Of a stretch of 19,733 nt of DNA, positions 9,945 to 11,360 are shown piece by piece (the first letter of the stretch is position 1; every line of letters begins with the position of its first letter). The position numbers and the translations under genes are program-made. The notes under the pieces are model-generated. The model was not told the origin of the DNA, made no database searches, and worked only from the letters and a program-made list of their open reading frames with translations. This DNA comes from Escherichia coli (GTDB lineage Bacteria; Pseudomonadota; Gammaproteobacteria; Enterobacterales; Enterobacteriaceae), in NCBI RefSeq assembly GCF_003334765.1, contig NZ_QOWT01000050.1. One strand, given 5' to 3'.

Positions 9945-10973
9945 GTTTCTTCCTCGTGTTCTGTAACACAGGAAGAAGCGCTGGCGTAATTTTTGAAGAA
10001 AACGTTATCACACGAAGACGTGCAGGTTCACAACTCCCCGGGCGCCACAGAGAAAGTGGGACCACACCCGGGTATCAGAACCATACAGAGAACGGCATAC
10101 GTGACAGTCAATCACAGCGCAGATAATATCTGAAGTGATGTCATTGTGACGACTGTACTTCATCAGAAACATTTATCAGGTAACATATTTCCAGACTGAA
10201 GCGGGAACACGATCGTAAAGTTTGTTCATGGTCAGTTCTGCCAGCCGGTGATCGACCGCAGAGTTGAAGGCTTCCATCTCCTCTGGAGTAAGCTTATAAC
10301 GCGCGTGGGAAATCACTTTTTCCAGTGAACAACAGTGGAACTACTCTGGTTTAAAATTCCATTACCCTCTCGTTATCTTGTACTGTGATTAACGTAATAT
10401 CGTCATAATGGCCTGACGTTATCCCGAAAGCCTTTCCACTTCCCAGTTTCTCCGGTAAAAGATGTTTTTAATACTGAAGGCATAACGCCATAACCAGATA
10501 TTACAATTAACGTAGCTTTCCGCAACGTACTACATGAGTAACAGAGGTACAGGGTTAAACAACACTCCGGAAGACTTTTTAATGACATGAGGCATACTCT
10601 TTTACGTATTACTACCAAAACTCATCAGGTGAGCTGCAGGAACAGATCATTAACAGTAATTCCTTAATCACCGTTATCCACAGTATCAACACTGGCGAAG
10701 TCATACTCTTAGCTATAAAGGTGATGACGGGTTCAGAATAGTTATTACACCATACAACAAAATACAGAAAACAACAGGAAAAATAACAGAAAAAAAATAG
10801 CAGACATTACTTAACAAAGCACGTTACAGTCAGTGTGTGAACATTACAGATTTATATTCAGGTGTTGCGGGACTACATTACTGAAGAGAGAGTTAAGAAC
10901 AGAGTTACAAGTACTACTACAGAGAATATCACTGCACAGATACTTCTATGAGACAGACTTCTACAGGACTTGG

Positions 10974-11030
10974 TTACAAGGTGTATTTACAAGGTAGAAT
11001 TACAGGGTTCATTTACACGGTAGAATTACA
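10974..11030. repeat. Short direct repeats TTACA(A/C)GGTAGAATTACA (two full copies plus a partial third) in an AT-rich intergenic region
   Basis: Copies at 10974-10985 (partial, TTACAAGGTGTA), 10987-11004 and 11013-11030, differing at one position. They sit inside a T-poor, A/C-rich low-complexity tract (about 10740-10960) full of ACAG/TTACA words. Roughly 25% GC by eye at 10741-10800. Confidence 0.5.
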
Positions 11031-11360
11031 TAAACATACTTCTATAAATAATACTAATTAACCTTTATTATTTTTTAATGGTACATGAACTGTATGTAGC
11101 TGTAACGATAAACAAATCACCCAAAACGAAAAATACTGGTTATCATGGTTCAGAGAACTCATACGAGTGGCAGCTTCCCCCTGAGCAATGCTTCATTTTC
11201 GGTGGTTCTGTGTGATAGATTTATGCTGACTACAGTGGCAGTAATACTGCTTTCCACCACACGAGGATAAAACCAGTCAAAAAATCAATTATATGAATTA
11301 ACAGTATTTTTTATGAAATGTTATGCATATCAACCAGTATGATTAACAGAAAACTTCATC

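Follow-up and report, generated by a model that had tools for sequence, protein, structure and literature searches.

The stretch of DNA analyzed here (19,733 nucleotides of Escherichia coli, referred to below as the window) is a decayed genomic island with many insertion sequence (IS) elements. The annotation of an identical record shows that many of the neighbouring genes are pseudogenes or IS elements as well. The feature in question is a tandem array of short units starting with TTACA, located in a long non-coding gap upstream of the gene yagM. The array is built of 13-bp units, whole units have been gained or lost between otherwise identical alleles, and only the E. coli lineage of the locus carries it. 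In the E. coli alleles it always lies directly upstream of a nearly invariant block (11036-11063). The role of the array in the transcription of yagM is a matter of prediction and is discussed after the observations.

The locus and its long non-coding gap

In gene order, a pair of zinc-ribbon genes comes first, then a Gp2-like gene and an hha-family gene, all on the minus strand. The gap is next, and then yagM on the plus strand, a gene encoding an AlpA-type helix-turn-helix (HTH) protein and a gene for a 205-aa protein. The features to which the text refers are as follows.

10961-11031, plus strand: tandem 13-bp array consisting of CTACAGGACTTGG, TTACAAGGTGTAT, TTACAAGGTAGAA, TTACAGGGTTCAT and TTACACGGTAGAA, then TTACAT; its copy number is variable, making it a variable-number tandem repeat (VNTR).
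11036-11063, plus strand: block ATACTTCTATAAATAATACTAATTAACC directly after the array, found in two alignments; the last predicted promoter has its -10-like hexamer here.
10973-11052, plus strand: four overlapping sigma-70 promoter-like sites made by the repeats and pointing at yagM, predicted by a consensus scan only, each matching at 9 of 12 positions.
10824-10960, plus strand: dispersed words of the same orientation, TTACA (10824, 10844, 10905) and TACAG (10918), conserved among E. coli alleles.
11361-12152, plus strand: YagM-family protein of 263 aa (Pfam PF27701/UCP007319), with an N-terminal ribbon-helix-helix (RHH) domain and a C-terminal domain of about 190 aa, fold unknown.
10363-11360, no strand: the whole gap, a non-coding, AT-rich, divergent control region between hha and yagM, defined by the annotation of identical and related genomes, indels between alleles and composition.
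11319-11348, no strand: inverted repeat TGTTATGCATA, 8 bp, TATGATTAACA, symmetric at 9 of 11 positions and ending 12 nt before the yagM start codon; a candidate operator.
10744-10803, plus strand: A-rich, T-poor tract including a 12-bp tandem repeat (10759-10794), detected by composition and Tandem Repeats Finder and specific to this allele.
10363-10720, minus strand: hha-proximal leader or promoter region, conserved and non-coding in the nine-allele alignment.
10674-10682, plus strand: perfect DnaA-box consensus, TTATCCACA, the only exact copy in the window; matches with one mismatch occur at chance level.
10176-10362, minus strand: hha/YmoA-family gene with a premature stop in this allele (NCBIfam Hha, E 4e-23, profile positions 24-71 only; tblastn with the K-12 Hha).
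9345-9944, minus strand: Gp2-like (YagK/YfjJ) gene, with weak Pfam matches to REP_ORF2-G2P (E 1e-4) and YagK_YfjJ_C (E 4e-4).
12536-12742, plus strand: AlpA/excisionase-family HTH gene, 383 bp downstream of yagM.

An earlier note on this DNA had described an AT-rich intergenic region of 750 bp. Its composition and non-coding nature were borne out, with 35.1% G+C over 10620-11360, compared to 47.5% in the whole window and about 51% in E. coli at large. The true size of the gap is larger, about 1 kb with 36% G+C, and its boundary is placed at 10363 because intact hha alleles start at the equivalent of 10362. Immediately after the array, a block at 11035-11100 falls to 23% G+C. No feature is annotated under the gap in any of about 750 E. 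coli genomes, and the indels that separate one allele from another are not multiples of 3. Two small open reading frames (ORFs) were considered as genes and discarded. The first (10403-10618, minus strand, 71 aa) is broken by frameshifting indels in other alleles, and the second (11079-11216, plus strand) is disrupted in other alleles by indels that are not multiples of 3. Furthermore, tblastn and blastn searches of the gap with the ORFs of relatives and with the rest of the window revealed no significant gene remnant.

The 741 bp covering 10620-11360 are 100% identical to the chromosome of strain NRZ14408. This stretch was found in 747 of 5426 complete E. coli genomes, including those of CFT073, Nissle 1917 and E24377A, and in each of them it is chromosomal. 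About 14% of complete E. coli genomes have the module formed by AlpA, the Gp2-like protein and YagM. The comparison of alleles was based on nine E. coli alleles that are 75-100% identical, to which further alleles were added later.

Gain and loss of whole repeat units among E. coli alleles

The region from 10974 to 11030 was resolved by Tandem Repeats Finder into a period of 13 bp (4.4 copies) and a period of 26 bp (2.2 copies, 87% matches). The wider span of the array listed above also counts a degenerate first unit and the final TTACAT. The pattern TTACANGGTNNANTTACA has four matches, where 0.18 would be expected, and none of 200 shuffled sequences reached four. The direct repeats that had been noticed at 10974-11030 are therefore genuine, but their unit had been given as 18 bp; it is 13 bp (26 bp for the double unit), and the 18-mer corresponds to one unit plus the TTACA of the next. 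A comparison of 20 distinct units gave the consensus TTACA-n-G-r-T-n-n-A-n, in which the TTACA core together with G7, T9 and A12 is better conserved than the remaining positions. The variation at positions 10, 11 and 13 comes mostly from two subtypes, ..GGTAGAA and ..GGTTCAT. Since these alternate, the underlying repeat is 26 bp long. The gap as a whole has a marked strand bias, with 10 copies of TTACA on the plus strand and one of TGTAA.

The array was present in every allele compared, and a first sample of 10 alleles had between 4 and 8 units. The counts are 4 units in NCTC9699, 6 in this window, 7 in CFT073, 8 in 675SK2 and B2.3, and 13 in a further allele (L035), whose 13 units reflect a duplicated block of five. 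Other alleles have expanded shorter words in the same place. The perfect 8-mer TTACAGAA occurs once, 10 times or 17 times depending on the allele, and GGTAGA occurs three or seven times in others. The 8-mer tract lies at the equivalent of about 10987-11000 of the window and has 17 copies in HCP17S3_I4 and 10 in CUPF09; the near-identical Iso00041 has one. For E. coli, these are unusually long perfect repeats of a short unit. In 748 genomes, the near-full-length matches to the 221 bp at 10890-11110 of the window are 198 to 343 bp long, a range over a single reference span that would make the tract of practical use as a typing marker.

Two pairs of alleles illustrate how the array changes. CFT073 and APEC E12049 differ by exactly one 13-mer, and their flanks (200 and 300 bp) are 100% identical. 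Iso00041 and HCP17S3_I4 differ by 128 bp, which is 16 copies of the 8-mer, between flanks that are 98.6-99.7% identical. Differences of whole units between otherwise identical alleles are the signature of slipped-strand gain and loss, and they define the array as a VNTR. How quickly do such changes arise? Among 33 genomes that carry the window-type allele at 99% identity or more, no unit-sized change of length was found, which argues against rapid switching of the 13-mers. The alleles with 10 and 17 perfect 8-mers could switch faster.

Within E. coli, the presence of the array is conserved and its form is not. The 28-bp block that follows it is identical in nearly all E. coli alleles, and a single base differs in one of them (L017). 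Outside of E. coli, the array is missing. The loci of Citrobacter, Klebsiella oxytoca, Hafnia, Cedecea, Enterobacter and Pectobacterium have yagM divergent from a Gp2-like gene followed by alpA, with only 360-390 bp between the divergent genes and without hha. These loci contain neither a TTACA array nor a tandem array of any other kind. Likewise, no such array was found for three more distant homologues, although the gaps upstream of them are long (500-700 bp). The earlier note had named the absence or lack of conservation of the repeats in homologous islands as a finding that would refute its interpretation, and outside of E. coli this is what the tandem-repeat search across relatives found.

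Metagenomes were also scanned for three TTACANGGT units with a period of 13 bp. The scan returned further E. coli alleles, and the matches from elsewhere had no neighbouring gene in common. These other matches, perfect tandem repeats of 13 bp, come from unrelated contexts, some of which are probably eukaryotic, and were taken as chance. On one metagenome contig (Ga0182021_10032136, positions 3181-3211), an unrelated 13-bp tandem array of GGTACACTTACAC-like units lies directly upstream of a 386-aa ORF. The N-terminal sequence of this ORF looks ATPase-like, and the contig also encodes an AlpA-like HTH protein. This arrangement may be a genuine iteron-type array of a different element.

Candidate roles of the tract

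The role proposed here is a tentative one, held with a little less than even confidence: the TTACA repeats would be a slippage-prone VNTR in the distal part of the yagM control region, inside intergenic DNA that was horizontally acquired, and their promoter-like units would tune transcription towards yagM. The yagM ORF was intact in eight of eight alleles, with dN/dS (the ratio of nonsynonymous to synonymous substitution rates) between 0.14 and 0.79, mostly 0.2-0.56, and on these ratios the gene appears to be under purifying selection. Since yagM looks functional, it needs a promoter. The tract has been read as a stack of promoter-like units because the array ends at the conserved block and because the repeats form four sigma-70-like sites. 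These in-phase sites are GTTACA-16-TAGAAT, ATTACA-16-TAGAAT, TTTACA-17-CATACT and ATTACA-16-AATAAT. In the same consensus scan, the region had 10 promoter-like sites, compared to 4.6 +/- 2.0 in shuffled sequences.

According to this model, each unit would supply a -35-like xTTACA and every second unit a -10-like TAGAAT, so that each 26-bp double unit would recreate a sigma-70 promoter-like site. The last unit would act as the -35 element of ATTACA-16-AATAAT, whose -10-like element would lie in the conserved block. The gain or loss of units would change the number of stacked promoter-like sites as well as the distance to elements further upstream, among them the promoter region of hha and the curved A-tract. 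Strains would differ as a result in how strongly yagM, and possibly alpA, is transcribed. The whole region would also be a likely target of H-NS and Hha because of its composition.

Several observations weigh against this proposal. AT-rich DNA commonly yields consensus matches of the kind that define the promoter-like sites, and 330 bp separate the end of the array from the yagM start codon. The main promoter or operator of yagM may instead be proximal and the tract irrelevant, because the only element conserved across genera adjoins the start codon. Switching appears to be slow, unlike that of classical contingency loci. Lastly, the conservation of the TTACA core and of positions 7, 9 and 12 could instead reflect a sequence-specific binding protein. 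The literature on yagM and yagK, hha paralogues, islands with AlpA and Gp2-like genes, 13-bp repeats, and transcription-start maps of CFT073 or Nissle provided context only and nothing on this region; chromatin immunoprecipitation data for H-NS and expression data covering it were not found there either.

A second reading is compatible with the first, although it seems somewhat unlikely as the primary explanation. The region would chiefly be a site of nucleation and silencing by H-NS and Hha, and the repeats would matter solely through their AT content and shape. The low G+C content (35-36%) fits this reading, as does the excess of promoter-like sites, which is typical of horizontally acquired DNA silenced by H-NS. 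The DNA is not only AT-rich but also predicted to be curved in places. Phased A-tracts give modest predicted curvature near 10790, with further peaks near 10630 and 11310 (z -2.5 to -3.1; about -2.6 for the A-rich tract). However, the array itself is predicted to be straight, the curved A-tract is specific to certain alleles, and stronger curvature is found elsewhere in the window.

The A-rich tract contributes to this reading in only some of the alleles. Its 12-bp repeat (AAAATAACAGA-like, 3.4 copies) supplies the phased A-tracts and is found only in alleles of the window and CFT073 type; in the SLK172, EC361, NCTC9699 and Iso00041 alleles, the alignment shows the tract deleted or replaced. 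The region had been described as an A/C-rich stretch with almost no T from 10740 to 10960. The T-poor anomaly is statistically real (the 60-bp maximum of A+C is 0.83, compared to 0.70 +/- 0.03 in shuffles), but it covers only about 60-90 bp, is A-rich rather than A/C-rich and is specific to the allele. Over 10740-10830, the composition is 55% A, 18% C, 11% G and 16.5% T, while T makes up 22.6% of 10740-10960. An A/C-rich tract was also considered as a recurring feature upstream of yagM and was rejected, since it reached significance in just two cases, this allele and one distant homologue. A small RNA arising from the tract is unlikely, because the tract is specific to the allele and has no Rfam match; at gathering thresholds, Rfam matched nothing in the whole window, and only chance-level matches appeared at E values up to 5. 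The 300 conserved bp preceding yagM were also considered as a structured RNA, an idea that was discarded, with folding z scores of -0.2 (plus strand) and +0.4 (minus strand) and compensatory changes at none of 77 predicted pairs.

The hha-family gene at the other end of the gap has a stop after its third codon in this allele (ATG GAA TTT TAA) and is intact in the EC361, Iso00041 and NCTC9699 alleles. Because of this premature stop, the PGAP annotation calls the gene only as 10176-10325, a C-terminal fragment of 49 aa. A degenerate tomB upstream of hha was sought and dropped, since tblastn gave no match; the tomB-hha operon of K-12 differs from this arrangement.

A third reading, which we regard as unlikely, is that a DNA-binding protein of the island binds the TTACA units cooperatively, as a multi-site operator or a centromere-like site. 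The most obvious binder would be YagM, through autoregulation of the kind seen with omega, ParR, MetJ or CopG, with AlpA as the alternative, and changes in copy number would alter occupancy. The more specific proposal, that the array is a platform of variable length for YagM, either a multi-site operator or centromere-like, is improbable. If it were true, the gain and loss of units would set how much YagM and AlpA is made, and thereby how stable a widespread class of E. coli islands is or how readily it is excised. Short direct repeats arrayed over a promoter are typical binding sites of RHH proteins, such as omega, ParR, ParG and MetJ. A gene for an RHH protein does adjoin the repeats here, the repeats overlap promoter-like hexamers, and all copies have a single orientation, including the dispersed ones. 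The conserved unit positions (TTACA, G7, T9 and A12 across the 20 units) would also suit a binding site.

What is known of YagM? The gene is labelled hypothetical, and in one genome "YagM family". The family is very small, with 27 clusters in a database of 5.8 billion proteins, 44 representatives in one of 1.8 billion and 6 loci in 100,044 species genomes. The K-12 YagM is a member at 25% identity. Searches of YagM against Pfam-A, NCBIfam, PHROGs and PADLOC gave no useful match, and none to a Rep protein in Pfam, NCBIfam or PHROG; the neighbouring genes likewise had no match among the PADLOC defence-system models. An AlphaFold2 model from 9 sequences was unusable, with a predicted local distance difference test (pLDDT) score of 44; a model from an alignment of 27 sequences reached 80. 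The assignment of the N terminus to the RHH class, which had been suspected for the protein encoded immediately downstream of the region, is supported by a Foldseek alignment of this model with CdbA at 1.7 A and by a weak match of the YagM profile to CopG. The C-terminal domain had no convincing structural relative in the PDB. Genes of the YagM family nearly always adjoin alpA and a Gp2-like (YagK/YfjJ) gene, and often an integrase, and the gaps upstream of them are unusually long.

The array and the protein are not conserved together. The RHH strand is nearly the same (RITFN versus RITFS) in orthologues at 52-57% identity, yet these lack a tandem array, and so do the distant homologues. Within the array, the spacing is inconstant (8, 12 or 13 bp), and GGTAGA has expanded without TTACA, a poor fit to a fixed cooperative geometry. 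The pattern of conservation is weak evidence for a binding site, because the variable positions mostly reflect the two subtypes of a 26-bp repeat. A better operator candidate, for YagM or AlpA, would be the inverted repeat at 11319-11348, which alone within the gap shows detectable DNA homology to the loci of Citrobacter, Klebsiella and Pectobacterium. Local alignment between E. coli and the other genera detected homology only over the 75-145 bp that immediately precede the start codon, centred on this inverted repeat. A -10 element (AATACT/TATACT) kept from E. coli to Pectobacterium had been considered and was withdrawn, since only the segment from about 11205 or 11275 to 11349 aligns.

A fourth reading, rather doubtful in our view, is that the tract has no function and is neutral debris of slippage in a decaying island riddled with IS elements, under little constraint. 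In its favour, expansions of three different tandem repeats (periods of 12, 13, and 8 or 6 bp) are seen across alleles inside a 300-bp stretch, hha is truncated, many neighbours are pseudogenes or IS elements, and the other genera do without the array. The gap is also less conserved than yagM itself. The window and NCTC9699 are about 87% identical over 11000-11300, and this divergence of about 13% exceeds that at the synonymous sites of yagM (dS about 0.06), a gene that is 95-99% identical. The 205-aa gene after alpA falls to 50-59% identity. These values suggest that recombination has produced a mosaic around a conserved yagM. However, all of the roughly 750 E. coli copies keep an array of at least four units abutting the same nearly invariant block, the TTACA core is kept even in diverged units, and yagM appears to be under purifying selection.

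The remaining reading had been raised in the earlier note, where iteron-like repeats next to a Rep-like gene were taken as a possible replication origin. That the repeats are iterons used by the Gp2-like protein or by YagM is extremely improbable. The comparison of alleles, the missing array in orthologues and the chromosomal location all speak against it. The nearest upstream gene is the hha pseudogene, and the Gp2-like gene, which was the one called Rep-like, lies beyond it and is thus cut off from the repeats. A case for an origin could be made from the direct repeats adjoining an AT-rich block, the perfect DnaA box 290 bp away, the weak match of the Gp2-like protein to a rolling-circle Rep domain and one 41-kb record labelled as a plasmid that carries the region. 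Against it, neither the number nor the length of the units is fixed (4 to 13 13-mers; 1, 10 or 17 8-mers; 3 or 7 6-mers), alleles with identical flanks differ by one unit, and a 13-bp period lacks helical phasing. Orthologous and homologous loci that keep both candidate genes have no array. A recognized initiator is lacking as well: YagM consists of an RHH and an unknown domain, the Gp2-like protein has only rolling-circle-type matches at E values of about 1e-4, and an initiator of the rolling-circle type would use a nick site instead of iterons. A single DnaA box and a single GATC (3.4 expected) are present in the gap, which has no consensus site for IHF. The DnaA box, located in the conserved part of the gap close to hha, is invariant in the nine alleles; it may be a chance match or a DnaA-responsive promoter element.

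The distribution of the region argues in the same direction. Among 786 places in the 5426 E. coli genomes searched, none is on a plasmid, and a phage database and viral contigs gave no match. In PLSDB, two doubtful records carry the region, a replicon of 1 Mb and the 41-kb "plasmid". The latter (CP088535.1, 41,067 bp) was deposited as a circular plasmid and has no replicon or relaxase type. It contains only genes of this island (Gp2-like, hha and zinc-ribbon genes, an autotransporter and cbeA/cbtA-type genes) and IS elements, and it could be either an excised circle or an artefact of assembly.

One further idea, that the repeats are a site or sponge for CsrA, was dropped: the unit resembles the core of RUACARGGAUGU, reportedly the CsrA consensus from systematic evolution of ligands by exponential enrichment (SELEX), but only one unit of the window has GGA, and just three GGA motifs lie nearby.

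The array in the light of known systems

The feature is of an ordinary kind, an uncharacterised AT-rich control region of an island that contains a VNTR. The main value of the analysis is a negative one, in that a replication origin need no longer be considered here. Should the tract prove to tune the transcription of yagM, and perhaps of alpA, E. coli would offer a rare example of regulation by repeat number; to our knowledge, the species is not known for regulation of the contingency type. Such regulation would act on a conserved "housekeeping" module of tRNA-associated islands (AlpA, the Gp2-like protein and YagM), the biology of which is essentially unknown.

Several known systems resemble the locus in part. 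The iteron origins of theta plasmids (such as pSC101, F, R6K and RK2) similarly combine direct repeats, an AT-rich stretch and a DnaA box in one intergenic region. Their iterons are 17-22 bp long, are spaced by about 22 bp, have a number that is fixed per replicon and need an initiator of the Rep_3 type. In contrast, the array described here has a period of 13 bp and a variable number of units, no Rep_3-type initiator accompanies it, it is only chromosomal, and homologous loci lack it. Arrays recognized by RHH proteins include the omega heptads of pSM19035, parC/ParR of R1, the ParG boxes, the metboxes of MetJ and the CopG operator. The likeness to these operators and centromeres lies in an RHH gene downstream of short direct repeats that overlap promoter-like hexamers. 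The differences are a period of 13 bp rather than 7, 8 or 11, an array that is 330 bp off, orthologues with the same RHH strand and no array, and a protein of 263 aa with a large unknown C-terminal domain. With regions silenced by H-NS, or "promoter islands", the gap has in common its low G+C content, its A-tracts, an excess of promoter-like sites and a location in an island next to an hha paralogue. Such regions do not generally contain a TTACA array that is strictly periodic and one-stranded.

The fourth comparison is with promoter-associated VNTRs and contingency tracts, for instance the TAAA tract of Neisseria nadA, the 7-bp repeats of Haemophilus hmw and the TA repeats of hif. As in these tracts, head-to-tail units lie upstream of or within promoter elements, and whole units are gained and lost. 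The array upstream of yagM differs from them in its long (13 bp) and imperfect units, in its stability within a clone-level lineage (the 33 genomes above) and in a promoter role that is predicted. Only the alleles with 10 and 17 copies of TTACAGAA resemble a classical hypermutable tract.

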